Origin: a virus | Taxonomy: Duplodnaviria > Heunggongvirae > Uroviricota > Caudoviricetes | Strand: one strand, 5' to 3' | DNA length: 64,000 nt | Virus record (IMG/VR): IMGVR_UViG_3300033067_000531 | Part shown: positions 11,606-46,216 of the stretch, one piece after another | Layout of the letters: each line of letters begins with the position of its first letter | Numbering within the stretch: position 1 is the first letter of the stretch | Program-made: the position numbers and the translations under genes | The notes under the pieces: model-generated | Told to the model about the DNA's origin: nothing | Seen by the model: only the letters and a program-made list of their open reading frames with translations | Database searches by the model: none

Positions 11606-12409
11606 TTAGGAATTCAATCGTTGTAGTAGTTTATCTGAACCAATAAGATTTGTGACCATATCGGTTTGAGTTTGTCCCATATTACTAAATGTTTTCAGGG
11701 TATTATATTCCTCAACAATGGTTCTGGAATTGTAGTAGAAATTGACATCCGCAGTTCTTCTGTCATTCATAAATGATGTAATACTACTCAAATTAGCAAT
11801 CATGTTGTTGGCCTGTTGTTGTGTCAGGTTAGATGTATATGATGTACTTGGTGGTTCTTCGATTGAAATGGTGGTAATGCTGTTCTGGATGGTTGTTGCA
11901 TAACCTTGTATAATATTGGAATATGCATCCAAGTCATTTTTTGTGTATAGACTACTGAAACAGGCGACCATAGGTGAGTTATTTTGTACTCCGTCAGTTT
12001 GGTACACAATATACATCACCATTTTACCTACACTTGAAGCGGTTTTATATGTTGGTAGTGTAGGGTCACTTTCCGGTGGTTCTGCCAATCCTGACAATCT
12101 GTTGGTATGATTATAGAAATTGTTTGCAGACGCATACAGTGATTGCGCAGCTGTCAATATAGAAGATACATTGGTGGATGCCAAATTAGGCACCGCAATG
12201 ATGTTATTTGCTGAATTCCATACGTTTTGTATGGACGTTTGTAGTGGATTCTTAAAATAGTCACTGACATTGTTGTTTGCCATGTCTTCCTTTTGCCATG
12301 GTTGCAACATATCTGGCATAGAATCCATTTGTTTTTTCACCGCATCAGACAAGTTCGACACACTCGATCCTGAATAAGGTGTATATCCTAATCTACCAAA
12401 AACACTCAT
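11606..12409 (-). CDS. Hypothetical virion/baseplate-associated protein (267 aa)
   Basis: ORF track; position between hub and wedge genes; Ser/Asn/Thr-rich. Confidence 0.4.
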   Translation of the reverse strand: MSVFGRLGYTPYSGSSVSNLSDAVKKQMDSMPDMLQPWQKEDMANNNVSDYFKNPLQTSIQNVWNSANNIIAVPNLASTNVSSILTAAQSLYASANNFYNHTNRLSGLAEPPESDPTLPTYKTASSVGKMVMYIVYQTDGVQNNSPMVACFSSLYTKNDLDAYSNIIQGYATTIQNSITTISIEEPPSTSYTSNLTQQQANNMIANLSSITSFMNDRRTADVNFYYNSRTIVEEYNTLKTFSNMGQTQTDMVTNLIGSDKLLQRLNS

Positions 12410-12418
12410 TATATCTCC

Positions 12419-13255
12419 TTAAACCATTTTGATGGATGGTGGTCCAGATGGACCTTTTGGTGTTGGATGAATATGTGAATTATAAATCGTTGTGTTCATA
12501 TCATCATGCATCAAAATAGAATTCATCACACCAAATGTGCCTTGTGGTGAGTTGACTGCAATGGCCGCATCGACCGTGCCTCCTGCAACCACGTCCGTTG
12601 CCACTAAGACTTTTGATGGAACAGCAACAGGTATACCAACCGCCACTCCACCTTCTGTGGTGACGAAACCTAGTGGACCTGCACTCATACCGGTAACCGC
12701 ATCAACCCTGGATTTAGAAGTAATCTTCTGTGCGGTCATCTCACCATTAATAGCAAGATCCGACTTGATGAATACTGCATCACCTGTTTCCAAAGCAATT
12801 GAACCGGTGGCACTATAACCACCACCAATAAGCATATCACCTTGTGATTGAACGGTAGAAGTTTTTTCGATTAATTGTTTATAGTGACCTTTGATGTGTT
12901 GTTCAAAGTTGCCTTCTACGGTCTGTACCATGTCGCCTTGTACTCGCATATTACAATCACCTTCAATAGTGATGTTGCATGTACCCTTAATCAACACATT
13001 CTTGTCTTTTACAACAATTTCATATCCATCACCAAAAATTTTATGCACTTCATCACCATTTGGGTGCATCTCAATAAATGTGTTTGAACGGTGTGAAATT
13101 CGGATTCTTTCACGTCCAGGTGTGTCATCCATTTCAAACATGTGTCCACGTGGAGTTTCCTTAACATGATTATAACGATACTCTGGCTGGTAATCAGTAT
13201 TTGCAGCCGATTCAGGTTCAAAAAAACCTTTATAGAATTCTGGTTTTGTGGTCAT
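12419..13255 (-). CDS. Central spike beta-helix protein (gp5 C-terminal-like / spike tip)
   Basis: Repetitive beta-strand segments (VxGxxVxxVxG type), Gly-rich 'GGVAVGIPVAVPSKVLVATDVVAGGTVD', C-terminal HIHPTPKGPSGPP; start overlaps upstream hub ORF stop. Confidence 0.45.
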   Translation of the reverse strand: MTTKPEFYKGFFEPESAANTDYQPEYRYNHVKETPRGHMFEMDDTPGRERIRISHRSNTFIEMHPNGDEVHKIFGDGYEIVVKDKNVLIKGTCNITIEGDCNMRVQGDMVQTVEGNFEQHIKGHYKQLIEKTSTVQSQGDMLIGGGYSATGSIALETGDAVFIKSDLAINGEMTAQKITSKSRVDAVTGMSAGPLGFVTTEGGVAVGIPVAVPSKVLVATDVVAGGTVDAAIAVNSPQGTFGVMNSILMHDDMNTTIYNSHIHPTPKGPSGPPSIKMV

Positions 13256-14394
13256 GGTGATTGCATTGATGATTTATTGAATGAATTTGCGGTTGCATTG
13301 GCTAACGCAACGTTCGCATCTCCATAATTTGTGTTGATGAAATCCATGATTAAATTTGCATGGTCAGCATCAGTTTGATATAAAGTTATTGAGATTAGAT
13401 TCGACACACTGTTATTTGCAGTATTTGCACTTTCAACGTTACTGTTTGCTGTATCTAGTGCTGTCTGTGTTGATGAACCTAGTTGTTCCAACATACTTTC
13501 CATACTGGAAGAAAACATACCAGGAATGGATTTAATCATATCAATAAAATTATTGATGGAAGTCAAGAACTGGGTGATACATCCTTGTATCATTGCTGCA
13601 ATTCTGCTAGGTAGACTATTCAAATAATCTACGATTTGTTGTATGTCCTTGACCAAATTGTAATATAGTGAAGCAGTTTCTGCAATTCTGGCCACAGTTT
13701 TAGTTAGTTCGTTGATTTGACGGACCAAATCCTTGGCCACAGAATAAGACTTTGATGCTATTCCTGTAGGATCCATACCCAACGCAGGCAACAATGAATT
13801 GATAACCGCTCTTAATTGAGTATTCATTTGTGTCAATATCAAACTCATTAATTGAGCAGAATGGTTTTTACCTCTTTTAATTGCATCTTGTATTTCACTT
13901 ACAGGATTGTTAATACCGATAGTGACGGTGGGTAATGTGATGAAGTATCTGAAATCACAAGCGTGGTCTAACGTTCTATTTGTGGTAGCTATCATTGTGT
14001 TTGCAACGTCACCTTGAGCTGCATAACCAACACTTGTTGAATTTAATGAACCATAAACTGGAATTCCATTAGGTCTATCTCTTTGTATCCAACCTGCAAC
14101 ATTGGCCAATGCACCAATTTGTGCAAACACTTGTGGTACTGTTCCTGTAACCACTGGCATCTGAGATTTCATACCATCCGAGAAATAACCGATTACATTC
14201 GTGCCTTCCAATAAGACAGAGAATGTTCCCCAAACATTTGGTGGTTGTTGTACAGATGCCCACGGCAAATCGGCTGTTGGTACCAATAATTTATTGTCTG
14301 TGTGTATTCCTTTGATACGAACCTTCACACGACCCAATTTCAATGGGTCTCTCGTATCTTCTACAACACCAAACCACTCGCCTCGTGCTACCAT
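13252..14394 (-). CDS. 5: Baseplate hub/spike protein, gp5-like N-terminal OB-fold domain
   Basis: N-terminus 'GEWFGVVEDTRDPLKLGRVKVRI' is the gp5/gpV/VgrG OB-fold signature; no lysozyme motif recognised. Confidence 0.6.
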   Translation of the reverse strand: MVARGEWFGVVEDTRDPLKLGRVKVRIKGIHTDNKLLVPTADLPWASVQQPPNVWGTFSVLLEGTNVIGYFSDGMKSQMPVVTGTVPQVFAQIGALANVAGWIQRDRPNGIPVYGSLNSTSVGYAAQGDVANTMIATTNRTLDHACDFRYFITLPTVTIGINNPVSEIQDAIKRGKNHSAQLMSLILTQMNTQLRAVINSLLPALGMDPTGIASKSYSVAKDLVRQINELTKTVARIAETASLYYNLVKDIQQIVDYLNSLPSRIAAMIQGCITQFLTSINNFIDMIKSIPGMFSSSMESMLEQLGSSTQTALDTANSNVESANTANNSVSNLISITLYQTDADHANLIMDFINTNYGDANVALANATANSFNKSSMQSP

Positions 14395-14397
14395 TTT

Positions 14398-15705
14398 TTA
14401 TCCTGAGTTACTATTTTTAGAAATTTCTAATACGGTTTGATAAACACCACTACTTTGTATAATATGTCGAACAGCTGTAATCAAATATTTACCCGAATAC
14501 ACTTCATCCAACTTTCTATTGTCGTCAGCCTGCTCAATTTGCAAGGAGTGAATTAGAATATTTACAGTCGAACCAACAGTCAAAAATGCATTGCCTGGAA
14601 CGACAATTTTTAATACGGTATGATTGGCTAAAGTCAACTGTGATGTTCTTAGACTTAATGTTTCCTGTAGATAGAAGTCTGGTGTAACACCTTTGTTGTT
14701 TTTTATATAGTCAACGGTATTCTCACCAGAATTTGTGGGAATCACACGAATGTAACCTTCTGGTCTTTGATTGAATTGTATTCCTTGTGTCAAAGGTTGA
14801 ACACCTTGGCCGTTTTCTGGACTAATTTGTGAAAGATATTTCAGATAATCAAAATCTTTTACAAACGTTTGGCCTGTGGTATAGTTGACACCAATAAATC
14901 TATTGGAGTATGCACCGTTGGACACTTCTCTTAGTGTGTTGTATGAACGAACATATTCCAGTGAAAGTATTGAATCTGATTCGCCAGTTTCATCTGGTTT
15001 AGTTTTTTCGGTGCTTAAGTTACTTTGTTCATAACGATATGTGAATAAAGGTTCTGTCTGCATCAACGAATTGAGTGATGCGAAAATGTAACCAAATCTG
15101 TTCTCAAAAAGGAACATGTCGGCACCAACAGTACCGGATGTGCTGTTATTTTGTGGTCTTGCATAATTTGATAGTTCACTGATGACCTCAAAGGGTCTAA
15201 TCATCGGTGCAATATAATCATAAAAACCTAATGTTGGTTGTATGGCCTGTATCTCGTTCTCTGTTTTCAGTTCGTTTTGTAATATGTCCTTAACGATGTA
15301 GTCAATACCTTTGCCCTTGTATGACTTACTGATGGCCATCGGTTGATTCATAACCAGGTCCACTGAACAGAAATAAATCTTATAGATTTCACTGGTCATG
15401 TTAACCGGTCTTCTGTCTTTGACCGTATATGCAATCATTTTCTTACTAGGTAAACGTGTGTTCCCATATTTGTCGAAATTGATTTCAATCATTTCCGAAC
15501 CACGTAACATACCCTTTTCGATGATACCTAAACCGTCACGGATCATCACAAAACCACTAACACTAAAACTGTAAATGTCCTCGAAATAGGACAATTCAAT
15601 AATCATGTCCTTTAGGTCGATTATAGAACCATCAGGTAGATGTAATATACATCCTTCTACTGAGGCTGTTTGTGTATAGAACGCGGAATTATCAGAATCA
15701 CTCAT
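14398..15705 (-). CDS. Baseplate hub protein, gp27-like (435 aa)
   Basis: Size and position directly upstream of gp5-like gene (the gp27-gp5 pair); no sequence motif recalled. Confidence 0.4.
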   Translation of the reverse strand: MSDSDNSAFYTQTASVEGCILHLPDGSIIDLKDMIIELSYFEDIYSFSVSGFVMIRDGLGIIEKGMLRGSEMIEINFDKYGNTRLPSKKMIAYTVKDRRPVNMTSEIYKIYFCSVDLVMNQPMAISKSYKGKGIDYIVKDILQNELKTENEIQAIQPTLGFYDYIAPMIRPFEVISELSNYARPQNNSTSGTVGADMFLFENRFGYIFASLNSLMQTEPLFTYRYEQSNLSTEKTKPDETGESDSILSLEYVRSYNTLREVSNGAYSNRFIGVNYTTGQTFVKDFDYLKYLSQISPENGQGVQPLTQGIQFNQRPEGYIRVIPTNSGENTVDYIKNNKGVTPDFYLQETLSLRTSQLTLANHTVLKIVVPGNAFLTVGSTVNILIHSLQIEQADDNRKLDEVYSGKYLITAVRHIIQSSGVYQTVLEISKNSNSG

Positions 15706-16310
15706 TTATTACCCAATAATTTCTTGAATTCATTTTCCACTTGTTGTACGTAGTTCTTGTTCAACAACTTGATATTTCTTTTGGATTCATTCAGACTCAC
15801 CTCATAATCATAGTATGATTGTGTGGATCTTTCTATCGAAACACTAACTGTTTCACCGGAAATCGTAAAAGTATCTGAATAAGGAACAAAATCGTTATAT
15901 TCTTGTTGAGAAATATCCACCGTATTCACTGTGGTTTCACCTGAAACTGAATTGACTTGGGTGGTTACTTTTTGGTATGATTTTACAGTTGTATATGGAT
16001 CGAAACCTAATGCATCATATTTTTCAGTGATGAATTTATCCAAAGTGTTGTTGTTTAATGGCCAATCCCACTGTGGATCCATAAGATTGTTACAGAAAAG
16101 AACTATCCAATAACGATATCCATCTCCATAATATTTTTGAGCCACAATCTCTGGTGTGTCTCCGTCTTGGATATCATAAGAATAGTAAACCAAAGGGTTT
16201 GATAAAATACTTGGAATAACACTCACTCGTGCTAATATGTTTTTATACGTCTGTGTTGTACCAGACGCATCCGTAATATCAATTAAAGGAATTGCACTAA
16301 AATATTTCAT
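15702..16310 (-). CDS. Baseplate protein (gp53-like?)
   Basis: 202 aa vs 196 aa for T4 gp53; overlapping junctions with neighbours; synteny only. Confidence 0.3.
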   Translation of the reverse strand: MKYFSAIPLIDITDASGTTQTYKNILARVSVIPSILSNPLVYYSYDIQDGDTPEIVAQKYYGDGYRYWIVLFCNNLMDPQWDWPLNNNTLDKFITEKYDALGFDPYTTVKSYQKVTTQVNSVSGETTVNTVDISQQEYNDFVPYSDTFTISGETVSVSIERSTQSYYDYEVSLNESKRNIKLLNKNYVQQVENEFKKLLGNK

Positions 16311-17311
16311 GTTTTTGCTCTATTTTCCAATTCATCAATCATGTCTCTGTCTAACAATTCGATTTCTCGGAACGATAGTGACATAGTTGTTTGTACAGGT
16401 GCACCATCACTTAATGCTGACCAACCATTTGGTGCATAGTTAACATCAACATTTTGCAATGCACATCTTAGTACAGGCGGAACATTTGGATTTGGTACAC
16501 CATTGAAAAAGAAACCTAAATCAAATACTGATGGTGGTTTCCAGAAAAATCCAGCTAGACCAGTTTGTTTTGTTGGTGCAGCTGCTCGTTTGAAAAGACG
16601 TATAATTTCTCTCACATTCGCAGCCTCATCGGGTGAAACAGGTGTAAATGTGAATTGCAACTCAAACTCTCTGAAATCAATACCTTCAAACAACATTTGT
16701 TGTTGTGGATTGAATGTGTAACCTAATTTTTTACCAATCAATTTTGCGGCGTTGTTGTTGACCATGGATGTGATGGCAGTAGAAATTTTACCAACAACTG
16801 GTGTTGAATTGATTGCTTCCGCTAAACTCAACTTATCATATTGTGCTTGATAATCAAAACTTAAAGTGTCTGGCATATAAAGGCGAATGGTGGTCAATTT
16901 ATCATCAACCGTTTCTGGTTGAGTATTAATTGCTCCAGTACCTAGGCGACCGAACATTGAAGCGCCTATATTACTTAATGTCTCTACTTTATTTTCACTG
17001 TGATATACACTGGAAACACCAGATTGTAGTTCACTGAATTTTTGTTTAGTATAATTCAGAATTTCTTCTGCATTAGTTTTGAATGGTTTAATATCACGTA
17101 TATTAAACTGTATTGCATGACCTTTATCGAAAGAATCCAAATCCTTAGGATAAGCAATAGATGTTGGATTATAAGGATTGTTTTGCAGACTCGATAACGG
17201 ACCTTTTACCTCAACGTTAGTTACTGTGCCCCATGAACGAACTTCACCTTTCTGAACTGGACTCAGTGGTGTATTATCTACTCTAGATTGTGTGGTTTGG
17301 ATATCGGCCAT
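16307..17311 (-). CDS. Baseplate/tail-tube junction protein, gp48/gp54-like
   Basis: 334 aa; head of the minus-strand baseplate operon, divergent from the gp4 gene; synteny only. Confidence 0.35.
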   Translation of the reverse strand: MADIQTTQSRVDNTPLSPVQKGEVRSWGTVTNVEVKGPLSSLQNNPYNPTSIAYPKDLDSFDKGHAIQFNIRDIKPFKTNAEEILNYTKQKFSELQSGVSSVYHSENKVETLSNIGASMFGRLGTGAINTQPETVDDKLTTIRLYMPDTLSFDYQAQYDKLSLAEAINSTPVVGKISTAITSMVNNNAAKLIGKKLGYTFNPQQQMLFEGIDFREFELQFTFTPVSPDEAANVREIIRLFKRAAAPTKQTGLAGFFWKPPSVFDLGFFFNGVPNPNVPPVLRCALQNVDVNYAPNGWSALSDGAPVQTTMSLSFREIELLDRDMIDELENRAKT

Positions 17312-17313
17312 GA

Positions 17314-17775
17314 TTGTTTAAAAAAAGATTATACATAGTATTTATGGCATATTCTGGAATATTCAAACCTAAAAATCCTCGCAAATACATTGGTGACCAC
17401 ACCAATATCATCTGGCGTTCCACGTGGGAATGTCGTGTTATGACTTGGTTGGACAACAATCCAAACGTTATTTCGTGGGCATCTGAAGAACTTATCATAC
17501 CCTACGTTTCTCCTGTGGATGGTAGGTGGCATAGGTATTTCCCAGACTTTTTGGTTAAAGTGAACACACAACAGGGTCCTAAAACCATGTTGATTGAGGT
17601 CAAACCTAAGAAACAAACACAACCACCCAAACAACAAAAACGTGTAACCAAGAGGTATATCACCGAAGTTGCAACTTGGGGTGTCAATCAGGCCAAATGG
17701 AAGGCCGCAGAAGAATACTGCTTGGATCGTGGTTGGGAGTTCAAAGTCATCACAGAAGACCATCTAGGACTCTAA
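17314..17775 (+). CDS. 4: Head completion protein gp4
   Basis: 'WHRYFPDFLVK...LIEVKPKKQTQ...NQAKWKAAEEYCLDRGWEFKVITE' matches T4 gp4 'HRYYPDF...EVKP...NQAKWEAA'; 153 aa. Confidence 0.65.
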   Translation: MFKKRLYIVFMAYSGIFKPKNPRKYIGDHTNIIWRSTWECRVMTWLDNNPNVISWASEELIIPYVSPVDGRWHRYFPDFLVKVNTQQGPKTMLIEVKPKKQTQPPKQQKRVTKRYITEVATWGVNQAKWKAAEEYCLDRGWEFKVITEDHLGL

Positions 17776-25794: not shown

Positions 25795-26475
25795 CTATCG
25801 CTTGGCAATAGAATCGTGGTAAAATTTTATATAGTCGAATAAAGTATTTATGTGGTCTTCGGTTTTCTCGACAAATAACAAGGGTTCCTCATCATCCACC
25901 GCCATGATAATGACAATCTGTTCGATAGGTTGGCCAACCAGTTCCTCATACATCATCGCATATGCAACACACTGAGCAAAGTAATTGTCAATGTCCTCAC
26001 GTTTCTTGATACGTTTGGAAGTCTTAAAGTCAATTACAGATAACTTACCATCAAACTCACCAATACAATCAACACGACCCGCCATACCAATCTTAACTGA
26101 CCACAAGGCCTGTTCTTGGAAATGTATGTTGTTAATACGATTCAATAAAGGTTTGATAGACTTAAACATCTGTAATGCATCCGGCATAACCTTCATCAGG
26201 TACTTTGGATCATTATTCAGATATTTTTCACATAAGGTGTGTAGGTTGGTACCACGACCAGAGGCAATACGTGATATCTTGTTGGCTTCTTCTTCACCTA
26301 CACGTTTACGCCATTTCATAATGGCCTCTTTACCTTTCGCACCAATAACAGTGGTGACCGAAGGCAACTTAACGCCGTCTGGTGTTACATAGTATCGTTT
26401 GCCATCAGGAAACGTTTGCGATTTTAAATCTTTCAAATCACACGGCGGACAATAATTAAAAATCATATTATTCAA
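25795..26475 (-). CDS. PD-(D/E)xK nuclease (Cas4/YqaJ-like putative exonuclease)
   Basis: 'GRVDCIGEFDGKLSVIDFKTSK' (D...D/ExK) and 'YFAQCVAYAMMYEE' (QxxxY) motifs. Confidence 0.6.
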   Translation of the reverse strand: MNNMIFNYCPPCDLKDLKSQTFPDGKRYYVTPDGVKLPSVTTVIGAKGKEAIMKWRKRVGEEEANKISRIASGRGTNLHTLCEKYLNNDPKYLMKVMPDALQMFKSIKPLLNRINNIHFQEQALWSVKIGMAGRVDCIGEFDGKLSVIDFKTSKRIKKREDIDNYFAQCVAYAMMYEELVGQPIEQIVIIMAVDDEEPLLFVEKTEDHINTLFDYIKFYHDSIAKR

Positions 26476-27103
26476 AAGTTAGGTGAAAAACAAAACACAA
26501 TCTAGTTTCTTTAGAGTTGTGTTCTCCTACAGCATGCCACAATTCTGGTGTATGTATGACCAAATCACCACTTCTAGGTTTAACATAGAACTTATCTTCT
26601 TCCAGAAACGAACTATGTTTTAATCCTGTTTGACCATTGCGTATGAAGATTAAATCGGATCCATTTTCTGGATTATTCACATAGAAAATGGCATTCAAGT
26701 CTGTGTGACCGTTATAATCTTTGGTTTTGTCGTACTGAAAACCAACATGATTATGACACAAACCCTGAGATTTGTCAAACATTTGATTCATCCAGGATTT
26801 CTTGACATTTACCCTCGTCACATCCTCACCAAACATTTCCTTGTATGCCAATAACGATTGGTTCGTTATCCACTGCATCAGTGGTTGTGCATCAGGTATG
26901 TTTGCTGGTCCTAGTAAAGGATTGTTTTCGGTGGTTTCACCTTGACCGTATTGTGAATCCCAATCACCACCACGTGTGCGGTTCAATACTTCAGGTAATG
27001 AGAAGATTCTTTCGGTTGTTTTTCGCAGTTGTTTATTTTTGTATAGTGTTTCATCATTACACTTGGTAACAAAAATTTTACCGTTAAACACTTCCAGTAT
27101 CAT
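26468..27103 (-). CDS. 2OG-Fe(II) oxygenase superfamily protein
   Basis: 211 aa; HxD...H-type jelly-roll signature region 'GDLVIHTPELWHAVGE'; overlapping junctions with neighbours. Confidence 0.5.
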   Translation of the reverse strand: MILEVFNGKIFVTKCNDETLYKNKQLRKTTERIFSLPEVLNRTRGGDWDSQYGQGETTENNPLLGPANIPDAQPLMQWITNQSLLAYKEMFGEDVTRVNVKKSWMNQMFDKSQGLCHNHVGFQYDKTKDYNGHTDLNAIFYVNNPENGSDLIFIRNGQTGLKHSSFLEEDKFYVKPRSGDLVIHTPELWHAVGEHNSKETRLCFVFHLTFE

Positions 27104-27707
27104 TTCTCACTCGTATATTCATAACAATACAAATACGATTCTCATCACTCAAATTTGGTTCCGTTGAATGTATGACGTAGTTTGGAAACAAGATTAACAT
27201 TCCAGGTTTAGGTTTAATCTCATAGAATGTTCTACCTGGTCGACCCCATTTATCCGCAGCAAGGTGTTTATCGTGCCATGGAATATCCACATGACCACGC
27301 GGATCACATAACATGATACTACCACTATTCTCCGGAATAGTAACATAGAACACACCAACCAATTCAGCACCAAAGTGTGTATGTGGTGTGTCCCACTCAT
27401 TAGGATACAATACAGATTGTTTTGTTTTGATTGTTGGAGTAAATTCTGGCCAGCCAGAGTCCTTTTTCACAACTTCAACAGCCTCAAGAATCTTCTCTTT
27501 GAGTTTACTGATTCCATAACCATTAAAATCTAAAAAGTCATGTTGATAAATGTCAAACTTATCACCATCAATCTGTTTTTGTTTATCTATAAATCTACTG
27601 AAATTAGAACCATCCATTTCAATAGACTTAACGAGATACTTGTCATCTTCACTCAAGTCGAATGTCCACACAGGAGTGGCAAACATCTGTTTTAAATCAT
27701 ATTTCAT
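27084..27707 (-). CDS. 2OG-Fe(II) oxygenase superfamily protein (second, divergent copy)
   Basis: 207 aa; 'PHTHFGAELVGVFYV...GHVDIPWHDKH...YVIHSTEPN' His/Asp-His triad pattern. Confidence 0.5.
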   Translation of the reverse strand: MKYDLKQMFATPVWTFDLSEDDKYLVKSIEMDGSNFSRFIDKQKQIDGDKFDIYQHDFLDFNGYGISKLKEKILEAVEVVKKDSGWPEFTPTIKTKQSVLYPNEWDTPHTHFGAELVGVFYVTIPENSGSIMLCDPRGHVDIPWHDKHLAADKWGRPGRTFYEIKPKPGMLILFPNYVIHSTEPNLSDENRICIVMNIRVRNDTGSV

Positions 27708-28315
27708 CGTATAATGTTTATGGCAGTTTCAACGTCTTTTAAGATTCTATCGTGTTGTGTGATATCCTCACACTCTTGCATAGTTACAAGGTGACTGTAA
27801 TCAATATCAATAATTTCATCACTGTCTTGTACTTGTTTTGATACACCAACAATGTCAATATTGATACTCAACATACCTTCGTTTTGGATAGACCTAAAGA
27901 TATTAGCATGAACCACTCGTTCGAGTTTATTCAAACGTCTTACCAAGACTTGACCAATTGGACTAAACTTAACAGGTTTCAAAGAGAAACCCATAAGTGG
28001 TAAACTGTCCATCTTATGTGGACAGATAAAAAATACAGGTACTCTTTGATGCAAGGTTGTATCAGCCAACTTAGAAATTTCTTCCGCTGGTGGCAAACTA
28101 CCCTTCGAATAGACTTCAAAAGGAACTATCGCAGTGGTTGTTACCGATTCACCTTTTGAATTGCGTACGGTAATATACATCAATGATGGTTCGGTGACCA
28201 GATTATACTCTGTCAAGTGTTGTAACATCCATTCTTCTGGACGTAGAACCCTGATGTTGAGAATATCGGTTCTTTCTTTTGCTTTAGATAAGAATTGTTT
28301 TAGTTCTGGATTCAT
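27704..28315 (-). CDS. Hypothetical protein (203 aa) in rSAM/oxygenase operon
   Basis: ORF track; 4-nt overlaps at both ends (translational coupling). Confidence 0.5.
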   Translation of the reverse strand: MNPELKQFLSKAKERTDILNIRVLRPEEWMLQHLTEYNLVTEPSLMYITVRNSKGESVTTTAIVPFEVYSKGSLPPAEEISKLADTTLHQRVPVFFICPHKMDSLPLMGFSLKPVKFSPIGQVLVRRLNKLERVVHANIFRSIQNEGMLSINIDIVGVSKQVQDSDEIIDIDYSHLVTMQECEDITQHDRILKDVETAINIIR

Positions 28316-29760
28316 TTTTGTTCTACTCTAGATTGCCCATAAACATCTACATCATCAATCTTACCTACAATTTCAGTCACAACCTTTATGGGGATGATTT
28401 TAGTTTTCTGTTTTTCTTTGTGTTCGTAAGTTGTACCCCAAATGTCAACTCGGTCAAGTGGCAAATCACCACCCTGAATCAACATAGGAATATAACCTGT
28501 CATCTTTTCCATACTCAAAGCAAACAATGATACATTATCTGAATATGCTGTGTCACAAGTCTTTTCCCAATATTCACCTTCGAGGTACATACAAGAACCC
28601 TTACATAGGTGTAATACCGGACAAGTAGAACATTCCTTTCTGTTCTTCCAGTGTGTCACAGATTTGATTGCAACATTATCATAGTCGTCTAGATTACCAC
28701 CCAAATGAGATTCACCGTTCTTGGAGTTCTCTTTGACTGACACGTTTTGACAAGTGATAACGTTACCTTTAAGGTCAATAGCAATCACATTCTCCATGTC
28801 CATACCACACTTCTGTCCAAGATATTTGGACTCATTATGTGATAAGACACTATCTGTAAAACTATTAATCTTATTCAAGATAGCATCAAAATTAATTTGG
28901 CCATCAGTTGAACGAATGTCATTGAACGCTGTTTTTCTATATTCAAAATGTTCTTGGTATGTACCTAAAGAATTATTGATACCATCAGCATCATATGCAT
29001 CAACCATCGTACCTTCACCGATGGAAACAGTTTCATCACCAGTAAATTCTTTGAACCACTCATACACATCTTTACGACTTGTATTTTGTCTGTTCATCAT
29101 TACATTGAAACTGATTCGACCTTGTGGGTGCATAGAGTTATAGAACTCCATCAGAATCTTCTTTTTGGATTCGTCAACAAAAGGATCAGGACCACGGACA
29201 TGTTGATTAGGACCATCATGTGAGATACCAACAGAAAAACCCATGTAGTACAACCATGCACAGATATCTTTGGTCAACAACGAACCATTGGTCACCATAC
29301 TAAATTGTGGTTTGTTCTTCCAATGGTCGAACTTTTCCACGATGGCTTCTGTCAAAGGCTTCAGAGTCTTCCAATAGACAAGAGGTTCACCACCCCAGAA
29401 TTCAATCTTCAAACCTTTTTGTTCATCAAAGTTTAATACATCCAGTTTTTGTAGGAATGATTCGATATCTTTCTTACTTGTTTCTGGTGGACGTTCGACA
29501 AATTTCTGTGAACAATAATCACAAGAATAGTTGCAAGATAGACCAAGTTGAATCTTTAGAATTTGAATATCTTTAGACTTCTTTAGTGGATGATTTTTAT
29601 CGAAGGCACGGGTTGGTTCTCCTGAATCAACATAACGTTGTTCAACAGGACTCTCAAAGATATAGCCTTCTTCATCACTCAAAACATTCGACTCATTATC
29701 GTAGTAAAATGTCTTAGAGTCTCCATCAATCATTCTCAAAGCATTAATAGTAAATTTCAT
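28312..29760 (-). CDS. Radical SAM enzyme with C-terminal SPASM/twitch auxiliary-cluster domain
   Basis: 'CNYSCDYC' CxxxCxxC rSAM motif; C-terminal 'CSTCPVLHLCKGSC' plus upstream Cys ('GQKCGMD', 'ITCQN') typical of SPASM maturases. Confidence 0.7.
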   Translation of the reverse strand: MKFTINALRMIDGDSKTFYYDNESNVLSDEEGYIFESPVEQRYVDSGEPTRAFDKNHPLKKSKDIQILKIQLGLSCNYSCDYCSQKFVERPPETSKKDIESFLQKLDVLNFDEQKGLKIEFWGGEPLVYWKTLKPLTEAIVEKFDHWKNKPQFSMVTNGSLLTKDICAWLYYMGFSVGISHDGPNQHVRGPDPFVDESKKKILMEFYNSMHPQGRISFNVMMNRQNTSRKDVYEWFKEFTGDETVSIGEGTMVDAYDADGINNSLGTYQEHFEYRKTAFNDIRSTDGQINFDAILNKINSFTDSVLSHNESKYLGQKCGMDMENVIAIDLKGNVITCQNVSVKENSKNGESHLGGNLDDYDNVAIKSVTHWKNRKECSTCPVLHLCKGSCMYLEGEYWEKTCDTAYSDNVSLFALSMEKMTGYIPMLIQGGDLPLDRVDIWGTTYEHKEKQKTKIIPIKVVTEIVGKIDDVDVYGQSRVEQK

Positions 29761-29768: not shown

Positions 29769-30437
29769 TTATTTGTTGTTGTTCTTATCATCCAGTTCTT
29801 TAATTGCTTCAATTAATAACGGTATAAGTTTGTAATAATCAACGATATTATATTTACCATCAATCTTAATGTTACTCAGTCCCACTGGGTAATGTTTCTC
29901 AATGTCTTGAGCAGACACACCAGCAGACAATGAGGTATCTAATCCTAATCGTTCAGCTTCGGCGTTGCCTTCAAATATAAAACCAGTTAAGGACTTAACA
30001 ATGTCTAATGCACCAGTGATATCAGACTTTCTGTTTTTCAATCTATCATCGGACCAGAAACAGTTACAGTTGCAATTACAGTTGTAAACACGACTCTTTG
30101 ATGTGGTACAATTATACACTGGATCACAGTTACAGTTGGCTTGATAATACTTTTTAGTATCACAATTTCTACAATTCGTCAGAGCAACTTGAATACAGTT
30201 TGCACATTGAATATTTCCTGTGCAATTACAATTCGTTACTGCTGGGTTTGGAGCTGAATCGCAGTTTCCATCCATGTTTCTCTGATAGTATGTTTTTCCA
30301 TGCAAACTATCATAGTTGTTTGGATTGCCTTTTGTGTTATCTTTAACCCAACTCATTGCCAATTGAGCGGTGCTGGGTAGTACCGCTTCTTCATTTATGT
30401 TATGTGCGGCAATTTGTCCGGATGCTGGTAAAGTCAT
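29769..30437 (-). CDS. Cys-rich (Asn-Cys repeat) protein fused to C-terminal intramolecular-chaperone auto-cleaving domain (Peptidase_S74-like)
   Basis: 14 Cys in about 75 aa, 13 of them as NC dipeptides (NCNCTGNIQCANC...NCNCNCNCFW). Followed by 'SDDRLKNRKSDITGALDIVKSLTGFIF...SAGVSAQDIEKHYP...DYYKLIPLLIEAIKELD', the endosialidase/tail-fibre chaperone motif SDxRLK. Confidence 0.6.
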   Translation of the reverse strand: MTLPASGQIAAHNINEEAVLPSTAQLAMSWVKDNTKGNPNNYDSLHGKTYYQRNMDGNCDSAPNPAVTNCNCTGNIQCANCIQVALTNCRNCDTKKYYQANCNCDPVYNCTTSKSRVYNCNCNCNCFWSDDRLKNRKSDITGALDIVKSLTGFIFEGNAEAERLGLDTSLSAGVSAQDIEKHYPVGLSNIKIDGKYNIVDYYKLIPLLIEAIKELDDKNNNK

Positions 30438-30474
30438 TTGTTAATGTCCTAATAAAATACTGTGGATATTTATC

Positions 30475-31353: not shown

Positions 31354-31629
31354 TTACCACTCTCTTGGCATTTTTGTTTTGTGGCCACTCATGGTGTTAC
31401 CAGGAATAGTCTCTTTCATGCGTTGAATCACACCACGTTCAAATGCCATATGTGATTGGCCGATACCAGGAACGGACATACGTTGACCGTCACCTAAACC
31501 AACAACATCTTCCGGTGCAAAGTAACGCACGAGGTGTGGATTATCTTCTTTAAACTTGTCATACTCCGCAAGGCGCATTGTATGTTCTTCAACTTTACCG
31601 GTATTATTATTTAAAAATGTGTAAATCAT
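31354..31629 (-). CDS. Hypothetical protein (91 aa)
   Basis: ORF track; ATGA-type overlap with downstream neighbour. Confidence 0.45.
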   Translation of the reverse strand: MIYTFLNNNTGKVEEHTMRLAEYDKFKEDNPHLVRYFAPEDVVGLGDGQRMSVPGIGQSHMAFERGVIQRMKETIPGNTMSGHKTKMPREW

Positions 31630-32180
31630 AGTTGTGTATTAGCGTACCAAGATGGTGTTGCACGATTTTTCCATGACGCAAGGTGCGTCTTATTACTTAT
31701 ATAGTAATTATGATACGATTTGATAGAATCGCCGGCCACTTTTACTTCATCAGGCATTGCTGGTGTAGGTTCAGTGAAACGGTTGGACATTTTGATATTT
31801 TGTGGATTGTTGGCCAATAAAGCCACTAGGCCATCACGTTCACACTTGTGGACTTTACCGTAACGATAGGTGTATTCTTTGCATAGAGCAACCAGCAATG
31901 AATGTAACCACATATATTCGGCATAACCACGGCGACACCAGATGGCTGATGGGTGGTTCAAGTGTGTTGCTTTGTATAGAACGTGCTCACGCAGTGGATC
32001 ATTCAGTTTGTAACGTGTAATTTTACGACCAGAAGAACTGTCAATATACAATTCACCGTCAATAACACGGTGAGCTGTAGACAAGAGTTGACAATACTCA
32101 AGGATCATTTTTACACAATGCTTGTCGTTGTGCATTTGCGCACATTTTACGGGGTCATGGTCGAGATAAAAGATATTCAT
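31626..32180 (-). CDS. Conserved phage hypothetical protein (184 aa), N-term 'MNIFYLDHDPVKCAQMHNDKHCVKMILE'
   Basis: ORF track; N-terminal motif recalled from a family conserved in phages (exact family not recalled). Confidence 0.45.
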   Translation of the reverse strand: MNIFYLDHDPVKCAQMHNDKHCVKMILEYCQLLSTAHRVIDGELYIDSSSGRKITRYKLNDPLREHVLYKATHLNHPSAIWCRRGYAEYMWLHSLLVALCKEYTYRYGKVHKCERDGLVALLANNPQNIKMSNRFTEPTPAMPDEVKVAGDSIKSYHNYYISNKTHLASWKNRATPSWYANTQL

Positions 32181-41826: not shown

Positions 41827-42975
41827 TCAAAAGGGGATTTCTTCACCAACGTTTGTTGATGTTATCACAGGTTTTTGTGGGTTTGCTTTCTCGTCAACTT
41901 TACTGTAAAGGTCCAAGAAGGCCTCTTTAGTTTCATCATCGAAACGAGCAACACACAACTTGATTGCCTTCATACGGTCTTTAAAGATATTGAAGGCCTT
42001 TGCAATGTGAACCAAACGGCGAGTAGAAATAATTTCGTCAACGCCACCTTGTTCAAAGGTTTGACGCACAATATCTGCCCACTGGGTCAAACGGTCCACA
42101 AATTCTTCATCCTGAATAAGAGGAGTCAGAATCTTTTTCTCAGTCTTTGCATCAGGATATTCCTGTTCGACTGTAATAGGGAAACGTTCCAAGAACGCAT
42201 CATCCAAAATTTGTGACAGGTACTTACCTTCTTCACTACCACGACCTTTGGTGTTAGCAGTAGCAATCACATTGAAACCTTCCTTTGGATGCACCATTTC
42301 ACCGTTCTTTTTGTTGTAGTACGGTTTGCCTTCCATGATACCCTGCAAACACATCAACTTATTAGAACCACGGTCAACTTCGTCAATCAAAAGAATAGCA
42401 CCACGTTTCATTGCGGCCAATACAGGACCATCACGGTTAACAACATTACCGTTGACGAGAGTAGGACCACCCAGTAAATCCGATTCATCAGTTTCAATAG
42501 AGATATTAACTCGGATACATTCTCGTCCGAGATTGGCACAAACCTGTTCGACCATAAGTGTCTTTCCGTTACCAGACAAGCCAGTAATGAATACGGGATA
42601 AAAATCATTAGACTTAATGATATTCCGCAAATCGTTAAAAAAACCAAAAGGGACATAATCGGGATACTTTACGGGAATAGATACATCAGATTCATCAACC
42701 AGTTTAGGTTGACGTAATGCAATCACTTGTGCGGATAAGGACATTTCTTCCTCAGGTTCAGGTTGTTTTTCAATAATTTTGGTACCAATACTAGGCAATT
42801 TGTATTGACCACGGTCGTGACGAAATTCAGATTTAGTCACCAACCAATAAGGGTAACTTAGACCCTTTTCTTCACATACATGCTCAATACCATCACGAGT
42901 GAGAATCGCTTCAACACCAAATAGTTCTTCAGCAGCTTTAATAAATGTGGTTTGGTTACGATTCAAACTCATCAT
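41827..42975 (-). CDS. cobS: CobS-like AAA+ ATPase (MoxR/CobS family)
   Basis: Walker A 'GLSGNGKT', Walker B 'LLIDEVD'; 382 aa. Confidence 0.65.
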   Translation of the reverse strand: MMSLNRNQTTFIKAAEELFGVEAILTRDGIEHVCEEKGLSYPYWLVTKSEFRHDRGQYKLPSIGTKIIEKQPEPEEEMSLSAQVIALRQPKLVDESDVSIPVKYPDYVPFGFFNDLRNIIKSNDFYPVFITGLSGNGKTLMVEQVCANLGRECIRVNISIETDESDLLGGPTLVNGNVVNRDGPVLAAMKRGAILLIDEVDRGSNKLMCLQGIMEGKPYYNKKNGEMVHPKEGFNVIATANTKGRGSEEGKYLSQILDDAFLERFPITVEQEYPDAKTEKKILTPLIQDEEFVDRLTQWADIVRQTFEQGGVDEIISTRRLVHIAKAFNIFKDRMKAIKLCVARFDDETKEAFLDLYSKVDEKANPQKPVITSTNVGEEIPF

Positions 42976-43010
42976 TTCTCCATAACAAAAATAGTATTAT
43001 ACCATATAGG

Positions 43011-43040
43011 TCAAAAAAAGGCAACCATCAGGTTGCCTCT
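43011..43040 (-). terminator. Rho-independent terminator downstream of rIIB
   Basis: Minus strand AGGCAACCTGATGGTTGCCTTTTTTTGA: 8-bp GC-rich stem, 4-nt loop, T7 run. Confidence 0.7.
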
Positions 43041-43043
43041 TTC

Positions 43044-44051
43044 TTACTTCGGTTGTGGCCAACCGTATTGACTACCAAGGTTCCTTGCCAGTGTTTCAGC
43101 AGAACGGAAGGATGGTGCTGCAACAAACTTGTATGCACGTGGACACCCGTTGTTACGGTCAAACTTACCATCGGTGTAACCTTCGTCATAGTTGTCGGTT
43201 CCATTTTGGTTGAATGAACCATCACCATTGTATCCGTTTTCATAACCACGGACATACTCACCACTACCAACCTTAGGTTCTTTTACCTTCACGCTGTTGG
43301 CGTTAGATTGCACTGGTGCAGTGAATTCAGTTGAATCTTCAGCATCCAAACCAACCTCACCAATGACTTCGTAACGGCAGCAACGACCTTTGCTGTTGTT
43401 GTAATCCACAGGGATAGAAACAACATCACGTGGGTTGATTTTCAAAATCATCACGTGGTCATCAGAATGACGGCCACTACCAAAGTTTGGAAGGTACTGC
43501 TCAGAACAGAAGTGCAAACCAGCTGAACAGGTTTGTTCCTTGTTGTCATCAACAGCATTACGTTCCATTTCACACACAGCACCAACAGAGTTATCAAAGG
43601 TGCCAGAATGAATATCTTTAAAGTCGCCACGCACTTTCTTGTAAGCAAGGAAATGGCCATCTGGTGTGATTGGCAAACTGTTCTTTTCCAAGAAACCAAA
43701 CAGTTCATTCACAGCACGGTATGATGGGTTTTGCATCAAGTTTTCCATGAACAGAACCAATGGTTCAATTGGGAAATCTTCTTGCAACATAGCAAACATA
43801 CGTTTAGACATTGCATTGTGGAACTCAGTACCTTTCCAGTACATCTTCTCACCTTTGATGGAGAGGTGACCAGAACCATAGTTCAACACCATTTGCTTAG
43901 GGTCAATGATATTCTCAACCACATCCCACTTACCATCTTTAATGGCCTGTTTCACCTTTTCATAGGTGGGATGTGTCTTACTAATTGTATGTGGTTTGTT
44001 CTTGATAACAATAGTGATATTGCTACCTTGAATCAGATAGGGATAAGACAT
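43044..44051 (-). CDS. rIIB: rIIB-like protein
   Basis: 335 aa (T4 rIIB 312 aa), immediately downstream of the rIIA homologue in the same orientation as in T4. Confidence 0.5.
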   Translation of the reverse strand: MSYPYLIQGSNITIVIKNKPHTISKTHPTYEKVKQAIKDGKWDVVENIIDPKQMVLNYGSGHLSIKGEKMYWKGTEFHNAMSKRMFAMLQEDFPIEPLVLFMENLMQNPSYRAVNELFGFLEKNSLPITPDGHFLAYKKVRGDFKDIHSGTFDNSVGAVCEMERNAVDDNKEQTCSAGLHFCSEQYLPNFGSGRHSDDHVMILKINPRDVVSIPVDYNNSKGRCCRYEVIGEVGLDAEDSTEFTAPVQSNANSVKVKEPKVGSGEYVRGYENGYNGDGSFNQNGTDNYDEGYTDGKFDRNNGCPRAYKFVAAPSFRSAETLARNLGSQYGWPQPK

Positions 44052-44068
44052 GACAATTTTCCTTTCAA

Positions 44069-46216
44069 TTAAACTTTGTCAATCAGATTAACATAATCAA
44101 TAACGTCTTTTGTATCAGCACGATAGTCCAATTTTTCAATCAGTGGGTATCGTTTTGTAATTTCATCAAACATTTTGATATACTTAGTGAGCAACACATC
44201 AAAGTCAGTGGAACCATCACCAAACATATCAGAGACGGTACGGAGACCAAAGAAGTTTTCACTCTTAGGTACATCAACAAATTCTTTCAGTGCATCACGT
44301 GCGGGACCAACATGAATATTATCAACGATTTCGGAGATATTATACTTCATAATGGCATACATGGCAAGCTTCTCGACCGCACAACCTAGGATCATCTTGT
44401 CACCCAGGTTTTGCACGAGTTCTTTGACGTAGGATTCCAAGTTAATCCAGTTGGATTTTTTCTTGATTTCCTCAATGTCACCTTTACGCACACCAAACAC
44501 TTTAATGTTCTTCAACTCAGGAATACCACAACCTTGAATCAGTTTAACGAATTCGGATGATGTATAACTTTTAACAATCTCAAATTGAGGTGAAAAACCA
44601 GACAATGGAATGTAGTAGTGGTTAACTGTATCATCAAACTCACTAGACTTGCCGGCATCACGCCACACCAAATCATGTGAAGCAGATTGCCAACGTGAAC
44701 CACCACGTTTTTCAATTTGCATGATGGTCACATCTTTACCAAGGCCGCCAGAATTAACAGCACGGTCTTTCTGACGCAAATCAGAAACCTTACGGCGTTG
44801 TGATTCTGGTGGATTGTGGAGTGCTTCATAGAAAGCATCCAACTTCATTGGCAAGGAACGGTCAATTGGTTCAACCACATACACATCGGCACTTGGACGT
44901 TTTGTCTCAGTACGCATGTGATGTTTGGAACGTTCCAATGCACCAACCTTAGTGTCGTTCTCAACAAACATAGTACGCTTCGACACATGGATATTCCATT
45001 GTGTTTCACGAATTGCATTATGGTCTTTGTCGTAACCAATGGTACGTGAAGATGGCTTCAATGTACTCATGGAAGTGTAATGTGGATCAGAGGAGAAACC
45101 ACGCAAATGAATATTCATTGCAGCGAAGTCGTCAACGTTGATTTCAAATGTATATTGGTGTGCCCATTGGTTGCCGCTCATCAATTCAAAATTGGTATCC
45201 GACACATACTTGTCAACGGCAGTTTTAAACAAACCATGGCGTTTCTTCTCATGCAAGAAGAAGGACTTTTCCCACTCGTTCTCAATCTTGTTCACTTCTT
45301 CAGCAACAAATTCAGACAAACGGCCGTTGATAGCTTCAAGTTTGCGCTTGATTGATTCAATGGTTTGTGGAATATAGGACAAACCTTCACGTGATGCTTG
45401 GAAGTCCAACTCACCAATACCAAATTCAATCACAACACCATGAGACAAGATGTGACGCAGGTCTCCCAAGGTCTTCTCAGCATTAGGCACTTCAATTGGA
45501 TACGAAATGTTGCCCATGATAGCAGCTGACGCATGGGAGTTCTTACGGATGTGAACACCAGGAATCAGGTTCTCAGTATCATATTCAATAGGAGAAATGT
45601 TAACGGACTTACCAGTGAAATTTGGCAGTTCTTTGAACCAACGGAACACATTGGCCGCTTCTTGTTCAAACTTGTAGAAATCGTTTTGGTTTTCTACAGC
45701 GAAACGAATCTCAACACCATTGTGTTCATCAGTTTCTTCGGTTGTCATCAATGCAATAGATGGTACACCTTGGTCGTTAATGAAGGCAGTGTAAATGCGT
45801 TTGTTGCCATCTTTGATGGCGGTTACTGTAAAATTTTCTGTATAAGAAAATGGAGACTTCGAACCGAGACCCAGAGCGCCAATAAAAGAGTTGCTGTTTG
45901 TCTTAGTGCTCTCAAAGTACGTTGTGTAGATGTTCGTAACTTGGTCATGGTCAAGGCCTGTACCGTAGTCACGTACAGAAAAGTAGGGTTCCAAATATGT
46001 TGGGATATGCACATCAATAGGTTTATCGGTGCCTGCTGCCACATGGGAATCCAATGCGTTACAGGACAATTCACGAATGACGGCTTTGATTTTGTTTGCG
46101 TAGAGGCCAGAGGACAGAATGTTAAATGCCTTTGCCGAATTACGAATACGGAATTCACCAATTTCGCCTACGTTGGAGAGAACCGCTTCGTTTTGGGGTG
46201 TATTGTTCAGAATCAT
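44069..46216 (-). CDS. rIIA: rIIA-like protein with GHKL (Bergerat-fold) ATPase N-domain
   Basis: 715 aa (T4 rIIA 725 aa); N-box 'IRELSCNALDS', G1 'VRDYGTGL', G2 'GALGLGSKS'. Confidence 0.65.
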   Translation of the reverse strand: MILNNTPQNEAVLSNVGEIGEFRIRNSAKAFNILSSGLYANKIKAVIRELSCNALDSHVAAGTDKPIDVHIPTYLEPYFSVRDYGTGLDHDQVTNIYTTYFESTKTNSNSFIGALGLGSKSPFSYTENFTVTAIKDGNKRIYTAFINDQGVPSIALMTTEETDEHNGVEIRFAVENQNDFYKFEQEAANVFRWFKELPNFTGKSVNISPIEYDTENLIPGVHIRKNSHASAAIMGNISYPIEVPNAEKTLGDLRHILSHGVVIEFGIGELDFQASREGLSYIPQTIESIKRKLEAINGRLSEFVAEEVNKIENEWEKSFFLHEKKRHGLFKTAVDKYVSDTNFELMSGNQWAHQYTFEINVDDFAAMNIHLRGFSSDPHYTSMSTLKPSSRTIGYDKDHNAIRETQWNIHVSKRTMFVENDTKVGALERSKHHMRTETKRPSADVYVVEPIDRSLPMKLDAFYEALHNPPESQRRKVSDLRQKDRAVNSGGLGKDVTIMQIEKRGGSRWQSASHDLVWRDAGKSSEFDDTVNHYYIPLSGFSPQFEIVKSYTSSEFVKLIQGCGIPELKNIKVFGVRKGDIEEIKKKSNWINLESYVKELVQNLGDKMILGCAVEKLAMYAIMKYNISEIVDNIHVGPARDALKEFVDVPKSENFFGLRTVSDMFGDGSTDFDVLLTKYIKMFDEITKRYPLIEKLDYRADTKDVIDYVNLIDKV

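Follow-up and report, generated by a model that had tools for sequence, protein, structure and literature searches.

An Asn-Cys-rich phage protein module encoded beside a radical SAM/SPASM enzyme and joined to a Peptidase_S74 chaperone domain: a candidate modified component of tail fibers

A gene in a stretch of 64,000 nucleotides (nt) of viral DNA, IMG/VR record IMGVR_UViG_3300033067_000531 (the window in what follows), raises the question of what a phage does with a small protein in which nearly every cysteine directly follows an asparagine, which is joined to a chaperone domain of the kind found on tail fibers, and which is encoded immediately upstream of a radical S-adenosylmethionine (SAM) enzyme. 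An initial annotation, made from the letters of the window, had noticed this Asn-Cys (NC) repeat protein and had suggested a fiber tip or adhesin among its roles. By examining the relatives of the protein, the genes that accompany them, and the available domain and structure models, we came to lean toward the view that the protein is a late-expressed, fiber-associated precursor, which would be cross-linked by its partner enzyme, trimerized and then released by its own S74 domain, and used as a fiber tip or an adhesin scaffold. The features on which this view is built are the following.

29769..30437, minus strand: whole gene of the NC-module protein with its predicted self-cleaving S74 chaperone, 222 amino acids (aa) plus stop (open reading frame [ORF] list and sequence)
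30273..30437, minus strand: N-terminal domain, aa 1 to 55, MTLPASGxIxxSDxNxExG...SLxWxxxNTK (conserved in all architectures; predicted local distance difference test [pLDDT] score of 87 to 93 in two AlphaFold runs)
30060..30269, minus strand: Asn/Cys-rich region, aa 57 to 126 (shuffle test; invariant Cys and Asn columns)
30060..30083, minus strand: terminal (NC)4 run, aa 119 to 126, just before the predicted cleavage site (sequence; TRF)
29772..30053, minus strand: Peptidase_S74 intramolecular chaperone, aa 129 to 222 (PF13884, PDB profile, Foldseek, Ser/Lys spacing)
30051-30053, minus strand: codon of Ser129, first member of the predicted dyad in S129-D-D-R-L-K134
30036-30038, minus strand: codon of Lys134, second member of the predicted dyad, with S-x4-K spacing
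28312..29760, minus strand: radical SAM/SPASM enzyme of 482 aa, presumed to mature the NC module (PF04055, TIGR04085), 8 nt downstream of the NC gene
30466..30474, minus strand: GATAAATAT, a T4-type late-promoter-like motif (scarcity of ATAAATA in the window and its recurrence in relatives)

The NC module and its interchangeable ends

The start codon of the NC gene is set by the conserved N terminus MTLPASG in the alignment of homologs, and the first 55 residues may be either a docking domain or a leader-like recognition element. Residues 57 to 126 contain 15 Asn and 14 Cys (residues 59, 70, 72, 78, 81, 89, 92, 102, 104, 110, 120, 122, 124, and 126), and Asn precedes all of these Cys except C78, which stands in NIQC; the 222-aa ORF reads exactly as the initial annotation had quoted it, with 14 Cys and 13 of them after Asn. 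The 13 NC dipeptides are an enrichment far beyond chance (mean, 3.0, and maximum, 10, in 200,000 trials with residues 57 to 126 shuffled). The only DNA repeat that TRF detected in this region is a hexanucleotide, (ACAGTT)x4, which spans 24 nt at positions 30060 to 30083, and the remainder of the NC pattern is not a microsatellite product. Read as protein, the (NC)4 run is a series of overlapping NxxC motifs. The initial annotation had also held that the Cys residues do not have the spacing of a zinc finger, which is too strong a statement in that the alignment contains two conserved CxxC knuckles, C78xxC81 and C89xxC92.

A search of 5.8 billion proteins yielded about 45 full-length homologs at 37 to 55% identity, all of them metagenomic and none of them named, among which C59, C81, C110, C120, and C122 are invariant; N58, N80, N88, N91, N103, N109, and N119 are conserved at 90% or more, and G57, D93, Q99, and Y108 are conserved anchors other than Cys. 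HMMER searches with residues 1 to 128 against 1.84 billion representative sequences returned 82 clusters, from which five very long proteins were rejected as spurious low-complexity matches, leaving about 77 clusters at 50% identity. Among 122 distinct members, the NC region, some 75 residues long, averages 17.1 Asn and 17.2 Cys, and the residue before a Cys is Asn in 73%, Ala in 13%, Asp in 5%, and Gln in 4% of cases; the number of Cys per module across the family ranges from 14 to 20. The concern that the NC repeats might be a compositional artifact is thus answered by the conservation of the pattern in homologs, and by the measure of these alignments the NC module is a conserved, undescribed domain. 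Queried by itself, the module gave no meaningful match in Pfam, PHROGs, or NCBIfam, and it is carried by no cultured phage in the INPHARED collection. A near-identity DNA search of 50,697 phage records, for which the NC/radical SAM pair alone served as the query, recovered nothing, and a tblastn search of the same records with the NC-S74 protein recovered just the S74 domains of long fibers, the best of which, from phage Sf-FS3, is without an NC region.

AlphaFold folds residues 1 to 55 with confidence. In contrast to the N-terminal domain, the NC loops reached pLDDT values of only 36 to 47 with two different alignments (34 and 59 sequences), residues 91 to 100 being the exception at 75 to 80. 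Loops that are left unfolded in these models fit a need for cross-links, for metal, or for partners and do not discriminate among the three. A fold search with the NC model against viral structures recovered just one uncharacterized family member and nonsignificant matches to Gp38 domains (E = 1.2 and 4.1).

In every relative the module ends at the last Cys of its CxC run, and what follows that Cys differs. (i) In the form that is commonest among the clusters, a stop codon comes within a few residues, so that the proteins end in, e.g., ...CACACW or ...CACADGGGG. (ii) In the form of the window, which is that of 5 of the 80 IMG/VR viral loci examined, an S74 domain follows at the junction ...CFW-SDDxLK or ...CACAC-SDxxLK. 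(iii) In a third form the module is followed by an intein-like Hint domain that starts with CF(P/L)AG. (iv) In a fourth, which is the commonest architecture in IMG/VR (L013, positions 5206 to 7799, and about 38 similar loci, e.g., L023, L040, and L088), a domain of about 170 aa follows, which starts with SKIIC(A/T)KL (in the wider motif CSKIIC[AT]KLYE.G), has a hydrophobic tail, and matches no family in Pfam, PHROGs, or NCBIfam. In loci of this fourth form, three more conserved genes come next; one product (122 aa) has a DxNxDG loop resembling that of an EF hand, and the other two, of 178 aa and 259 aa, are cupin/2-oxoglutarate (2OG)-like.

Because two unrelated self-cleaving folds, S74 and Hint, occur at one and the same junction and other forms of the protein end there naturally, we take the NC module to be the mature product. 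These comparisons indicate that the functional product would be an NC module of about 128 aa with a free C terminus, which in the window would end in ...NCNCNCNCFW. Since the S74 fusion is a minority architecture, interest attaches to the module and not to the fusion. The N-terminal domain and the NC region are in turn separable modules, as they are split in the metagenomic protein P0190 (337 aa) by a Gly-rich insert of about 200 aa that lies between the N-terminal ~40 residues and the NC region.

The C-terminal part of the window protein had been recognized in the initial annotation as a Peptidase_S74 domain with an SDxRLK motif, and this assignment is secure by both sequence profile and predicted fold. 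PF13884 matches residues 129 to 184 with 25.8 bits against a gathering cutoff of 22 (the relative P0038 scores 50.5 bits), 18 PHROG tail-fiber families match the C-terminal ~90 residues, and the best match of the family profile in the PDB is gp37 of phage S16 (PDB code 6f45; E = 2.4 × 10−7), with the MyRF ICA domain (PDB code 7dc3) also recovered. AlphaFold models residues 130 to 222 at pLDDT 91 to 98, including a C-terminal helix at residues 201 to 221, and Foldseek searches with this model recovered 7dc3 (MyRF; E = 3.5 × 10−4), an endosialidase chaperone (3gw6), and the GA-1 chaperone (3gud). Alignment around SDDRLK finds the Ser/Lys dyad kept in all S74-bearing members of the family, with counterparts of the S-x4-K spacing in endoNF (S911/K916) and MyRF (S587/K592) (PMC8326128). 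By analogy with these chaperones, the precursor would cleave itself at Ser129.

The partner enzyme and the setting of the gene pair

The enzyme encoded next to the NC gene scores 36.1 bits with the SPASM model TIGR04085 (cutoff, 27). Among 57 distinct homologs, both its CX3CX2C motif (C76, C80, and C83) and the seven Cys of the SPASM region (C318, C337, C377, C380, C386, C390, and C402) are 100% conserved. Of 80 IMG/VR viral loci that encode the NC module, 79 have a homolog of this enzyme (43 to 70% identity) encoded beside the module and on its strand, the lone exception (L019) being a sequence that stops about 156 bp past the NC gene. The pair is likewise found on the same strand in all six loci from cellular genomes, namely, Polynucleobacter, Paraburkholderia, and metagenome-assembled genomes of Lishizhenia, Hyphomicrobiaceae, Saccharimonadales, and Bacteroidetes. 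The NC gene precedes the enzyme gene in the short, S74, and Hint forms, the order is reversed in the fourth form, and the intergenic gaps are mostly between −8 and +33 nt. Because the pairing survives both this inversion of order and transfer among very different phage backbones, a functional relation of enzyme to substrate between the radical SAM protein and the NC protein is strongly supported by the genomic evidence. The proposal of the initial annotation that the NC protein is a cross-linking substrate of the adjoining radical SAM/SPASM enzyme thereby gains weight from adjacency in either order.

Curated family models place the enzyme only loosely. Its scores with NCBIfam models are 92.9 bits for PapB (cutoff, 340), 80 for QhpD (cutoff, 453), 69.7 for CcpM (cutoff, 500), and 47 for the SCIFF maturase (cutoff, 425), and it belongs to none of the equivalog families PapB, QhpD, CteB/SCIFF, and CcpM. 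Other curated matches below their cutoffs are to the geopeptide maturase, the anaerobic sulfatase maturase, and cyclophane-forming enzymes. Sequence searches of the PDB gave just two matches, one of which is CteB (5wgg). PapB, QhpD, CcpM, and SCIFF/CteB, the best curated matches, are all maturases that form Cys thioethers on Cys-rich substrates. Among cultured phages there is no close homolog of the enzyme; those of RSP15, JWF, and 2-1 are only 41 to 46% identical, and those of RP12 and RP31 are 26% identical. In L036 (positions 8385 to 12037), the NC gene is followed by two radical SAM genes, of 438 and 480 aa. In L035 and L063, homologs of ORF047 and ORF046 of phage RSP15 stand between the NC gene and the enzyme gene; RSP15 itself holds the enzyme together with both ORF046 and ORF047.

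The relatives of the pair sit in tail-fiber modules. In at least 26 viral loci a fiber-like gene (211 to 1,041 aa), most often with an S74 domain of its own, ends at or overlaps the start of the pair; a tail-fiber gene stands directly before the pair in three prophage or phage-like contigs as well, and L086 and L087 show the same fiber-module placement. The Polynucleobacter contig (NZ_JACVPJ010000020, isolate JS-Safj-400b-B2) encodes, one after another, tail assembly protein I, central fiber J, a 340-aa fiber-S74 protein, the NC protein (131 aa), and the radical SAM enzyme, and in the prophage of Paraburkholderia sp. BCC1886 fiber genes flank the pair on both sides. A related arrangement occurs in the Achromobacter phages JWF and 2-1, where a fiber encoded downstream of J has a terminal NCNCDCNC(NC)SC run that leads straight into a Hint domain, and a radical SAM/SPASM enzyme 41 to 42% identical to that of the window is encoded two genes downstream of the fiber. 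These fiber genes are the following.

L004, 1811-3262: fiber gp028 of Achromobacter phage JWF
L093, 3853-5295: corresponding fiber of phage 2-1

These two siphophages are the only cultivable carriers that we found for the association of a CxC run with the enzyme. Through the placement of the pair inside the tail-fiber modules of relatives, the suggestion of a fiber tip or adhesin receives support from context. In pelagimyophages, radical SAM cassettes have been described as variable parts of the host-recognition cluster, with no further analysis (PMC7029224).

The window itself belongs to a T4-like myovirus that is uncultured. Baseplate wedge and hub genes lie at positions 2978 to 17311 and rIIA at 44069 to 46216; the regions 2978 to 17311 and 41827 to 46216 together hold genes for gp6-, gp7-, and gp8-like wedge proteins, a gp5-like hub, rIIA, and a CobS-like ATPase. 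The phoH gene of this virus is just ~45% identical to cyanophage phoH. A minus-strand gene at 31626 to 32180 (184 aa), with a subthreshold match to pyrimidine dimer DNA glycosylase (Pyr_excise), is syntenic with the pair in 26 loci.

Upstream of the NC gene lies the motif GATAAATAT, which the initial annotation had placed at 30458 to 30466, 8 nt away from its actual position of 30466 to 30474; counted back from the ATG, it runs from 37 nt (first base) to 29 nt (last base). The consensus of T4-type late promoters is TATAAATA/NATAAATA. The core ATAAATA occurs 7 times in the window, against an expectation of 16 ± 4. Among about 58 distinct upstream regions from related loci, 20 have it starting 28 to 38 nt ahead of the first start codon of the pair, compared with a background of 1.8% in random 80-nt windows; in most of the loci without it, a fiber gene abuts the pair. 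Five of the seven copies in the window are on the minus strand, the main coding strand (4371 to 4377, 11519 to 11525, 17339 to 17345, 25845 to 25851, and 30467 to 30473), and several stand just upstream of baseplate or structural genes, which fits a set of T4-type late promoters; one copy is 28 nt upstream of the first gene of a baseplate operon (ATG at 17311). Scans for sigma-70 promoters and terminators stayed at chance level. The motif and its recurrence are consistent with T4-type late transcription of the pair and so lend support to the idea of late expression.

Proposed maturation and competing readings

The sequence of events that we favor has four steps. The NC-S74 precursor would be made late in infection, and the radical SAM/SPASM enzyme would then, in the cytoplasm, modify its Cys/Asn-rich region, most likely by forming several thioether cross-links from Cys to neighboring residues, with Asn as the probable acceptor, for which NxxC-type, ranthipeptide, and QhpC maturation serve as models. 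The S74 domain would next trimerize the chains and cut itself off at Ser129. The result would be a compact, stapled module of about 14 kDa, resistant to proteases and reduction, which may be incorporated into the virion at or near a fiber tip and act there as the tip or as an adhesin scaffold. We propose thioethers because the nearest enzyme families form them, because the Cys residues are conserved, because the module contains NxxC motifs, and because the residues found before Cys (Asn, Ala, Asp, and Gln) are the acceptor set of NxxcB; these are parallels with known systems and not tests of the proposal.

A more specific version can be offered only tentatively. In it, a ladder of Cys-Asn thioethers within or between chains would form a hyperstable receptor-binding tip, freed by a swappable S74 or Hint domain. 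Exchange of modules would have carried the system among myo-, sipho-, and Ackermann-like phages whose hosts are marine, freshwater, and soil bacteria. This would be the first maturation of a phage virion protein by a radical enzyme of the type acting on ribosomally synthesized and posttranslationally modified peptides (RiPPs).

Several observations weigh against the maturation scheme set out above. With all scores far below the equivalog cutoffs, the chemistry of the enzyme is unreadable from homology. The scan detected no RiPP precursor recognition element (RRE) or PqqD-like domain (PF05402) at E ≤ 0.01, and the enzyme has about 60 aa before its radical SAM core, compared with about 90 to 100 in CteB and 8vpo. 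Ralstonia phage RSP15 encodes a 46% identical enzyme with no Cys-rich neighbor within 22 kb. The domain of the fourth form, with a hydrophobic tail and no recognizable protease, fits a virion fiber tip less obviously. In the window, the pair stands outside any structural module, with phoH upstream and auxiliary-type genes on the other side, and the baseplate genes are about 12 kb away. Finally, the CxC and CxxC motifs could bind metal rather than be cross-linked.

This last point leads to the rival that survives best, though we regard it as unlikely, namely, that the NC protein is a metal-binding fiber module in which the Cys residues of one or three chains hold a metal or Fe-S-like clusters while the enzyme acts elsewhere or assists. 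The density of CxC motifs and the conserved knuckles C78xxC81 and C89xxC92 would suit such a module, as would an NC region that AlphaFold, working without ligands, does not fold and a CxC run that immediately precedes a domain responsible for folding triple beta-helices; if the strand alternates, every Cys could point toward the threefold axis. Metal sites in phage fiber tips are established for T4 gp37, as reported by Bartual et al. in 2010; the HxH iron sites of its needle, or a metallothionein, would be a model. Metal binding leaves unexplained, however, why a radical SAM/SPASM enzyme accompanies the module almost without exception, whatever the gene order or the type of phage, and why Asn is conserved beside Cys, and no homology links the module to metallothionein or zinc-finger families (SPT4 matches have E values of ~0.5).

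It is improbable, in our estimate, that the product is instead a released RiPP-like effector (a toxin, a bacteriocin-like or antidefense agent, or a redox or metal scavenger) set free at lysis or within the cell, with S74 and Hint used only for release. A Cys-rich precursor beside a radical SAM/SPASM enzyme is the classic layout of ranthipeptide and SCIFF systems, the neighbors of the gene in the window are of auxiliary type (phoH, 2OG oxygenases, and a PD-(D/E)XK nuclease), and the hydrophobic C-terminal tail of the fourth form suggests association with membranes. Against this, neither a transporter nor a leader protease nor an immunity gene is conserved with the pair, which instead occurs in the tail-fiber modules of sipho-type prophages, JWF-like phages, and many IMG/VR loci. 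Late-promoter motifs are moreover typical of structural genes, and the fused S74 domain is a trimerizing chaperone of fibers.

Somewhat less probable again is a different radical SAM chemistry on the NC module, such as D-epimerization, conversion of Cys to formylglycine or dehydroalanine, or C-C or C-O cross-links, with no thioethers formed. Similar SPASM enzymes catalyze very different reactions, the curated matches all lie far below cutoff and include the anaerobic sulfatase maturase and cyclophane-forming enzymes, and the JWF homolog is annotated as a sulfatase-maturating enzyme. Yet the conserved feature of the substrate is Cys, with 14 to 20 per module; the best-scoring families, PapB, QhpD, CcpM, and SCIFF/CteB, all make Cys thioethers; and the residues before Cys match the NxxcB acceptor set. 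That the NC pattern is a compositional or repeat artifact or the ORF nonfunctional, for which the hexanucleotide repeat in the last 24 nt of the NC region might speak, is refuted by the ~77 clusters at 50% identity, by Cys and Asn columns that remain invariant at 37 to 55% identity with different codons, and by the conservation of the partner gene and the promoter motif.

The literature searched yielded no account of the NC module, nor of any phage fiber acted upon by a radical SAM enzyme. To our knowledge, maturation by radical SAM/SPASM enzymes has been described for peptide natural products of bacteria and for a few enzyme subunits, but not for virus particles. While S74 chaperones, Hint autoprocessing, and SPASM maturases with Cys-rich substrates are each known, their combination in phages is represented by no model in the family collections searched; what is new is the conjunction of an NC module of about 128 aa, a dedicated enzyme, swappable self-cleaving ends, and a fiber-locus setting. 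If cross-linking of the module proves true, it would constitute a new class of posttranslational modification in the host-recognition proteins of phages and would account for the radical SAM cassettes, hitherto unexplained, that were noted among the host-recognition genes of marine myophages (PMC7029224). Enzymes that are being developed as thioether-stapling tools (PMC12373016) would gain a new type of substrate, of ~128 aa with 14 to 20 Cys, and the module, compact and resistant to reduction, would be a scaffold with variable loops open to engineering as a binder. The functional roles put forward are conjectural. The gene pair is short and self-contained and is of interest to both phage structural biology and RiPP enzymology.

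Further cassette components and comparison with known systems

Downstream of the enzyme, the window contains three more genes that recur with the pair in relatives.

27704..28315, minus strand: 203-aa acidic protein, with a 4-nt overlap with the radical SAM stop codon (same position in relatives)
27084-27707, minus strand: first of two tandem 2OG-Fe(II) oxygenase genes (PF13759)
26468-27103, minus strand: second of the two, completing a five-gene cassette (PF13759)

The 203-aa ORF has no match in Pfam, PHROGs, or NCBIfam, and the sole match in a homolog search was a 99% identical twin. Its family, which is very divergent and built of one or two units of ~100 aa, occupies the same position in at least 24 loci (hhalign probabilities, 79 to 97%) and is also present in L094. 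The protein is possibly a third component of the system, e.g., a separate substrate-recognition or chaperone partner. The order of the five-gene cassette repeats in the S74-type loci L094, L018, and L083-85, including one contig of 201.8 kb. The sipho-type and prophage loci lack the 2OG oxygenases, which are therefore not partners of the pair in every case. Genes for 2OG oxygenases are also found after the giant S74 fibers of cyanophages Sf-FS3 and S-SSM7, which hints at a wider link between fiber genes and hydroxylases. Including these oxygenases, the auxiliary-type neighbors in the window comprise phoH and a PD-(D/E)XK nuclease gene.

Each part of the proposed system can be compared with a better-understood counterpart. 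The S74 domain resembles the chaperones of phage K1F endosialidase, the T5 L-shaped fiber, the GA-1 neck appendage, S16 gp37, and MyRF in its Pfam match, PDB profile, and predicted fold, as well as in its Ser-x4-Lys dyad, C-terminal position, and terminal helix. Unlike these, it follows a Cys/Asn-rich module of 128 aa rather than a long fiber or tailspike, and within the NC family it is replaceable by Hint, by another domain, or by nothing.

The NC module and its enzyme recall QhpC and QhpD, in which a radical SAM/SPASM enzyme likewise introduces several Cys thioethers into a small protein that is a structural subunit. QhpC is a periplasmic enzyme subunit with four Cys whose acceptors are Asp and Glu. 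The QhpD model is the third-best match of the window enzyme (80 bits, below the cutoff of 453). With PapA/PapB (freyrasin) and SCIFF/CteB, the system shares a Cys-rich precursor encoded beside a seven-Cys radical SAM/SPASM enzyme, PapB being the best NCBIfam match of the enzyme; PapB installs six Cys thioethers on one substrate (PMC12373016). The NC substrate differs, however, in being a protein of about 128 aa with a folded N-terminal domain instead of a short leader-core peptide, in having Asn rather than Asp or Glu beside Cys, in lacking a detected RRE, and in being encoded by phages in fiber loci. In the streptococcal NxxcA/NxxcB system, Cys sulfur is joined to the C-beta of Asn in an Asn-x-x-Cys motif, and the acceptor position tolerates Ala, Gln, and Asp (PMC9389541). 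Both (NC)n and NIQC of the NC module are NxxC motifs, and Asn, Ala, Asp, or Gln precedes Cys in 95% of cases, a likeness by motif alone.

Among phage fibers, the needle of T4 gp37 is similar in having an alternating ligand-x-ligand run at the distal end, with His there and Cys here. The gp37-gp38 pairs of T2 and S16 provide a parallel in arrangement, as a small gene stands directly downstream of a fiber gene with an S74-like C terminus, but gp38 has no homology to the NC module, and the NC system possesses a dedicated radical SAM enzyme. JWF gp028/gp030 and 2-1 gp27/gp29 differ from the family in that their CxC run lies within a fiber of about 480 aa that is without the family N-terminal domain and the upstream NC region, while they share with it a CxC run placed before a self-cleaving Hint domain and a radical SAM/SPASM enzyme encoded nearby.

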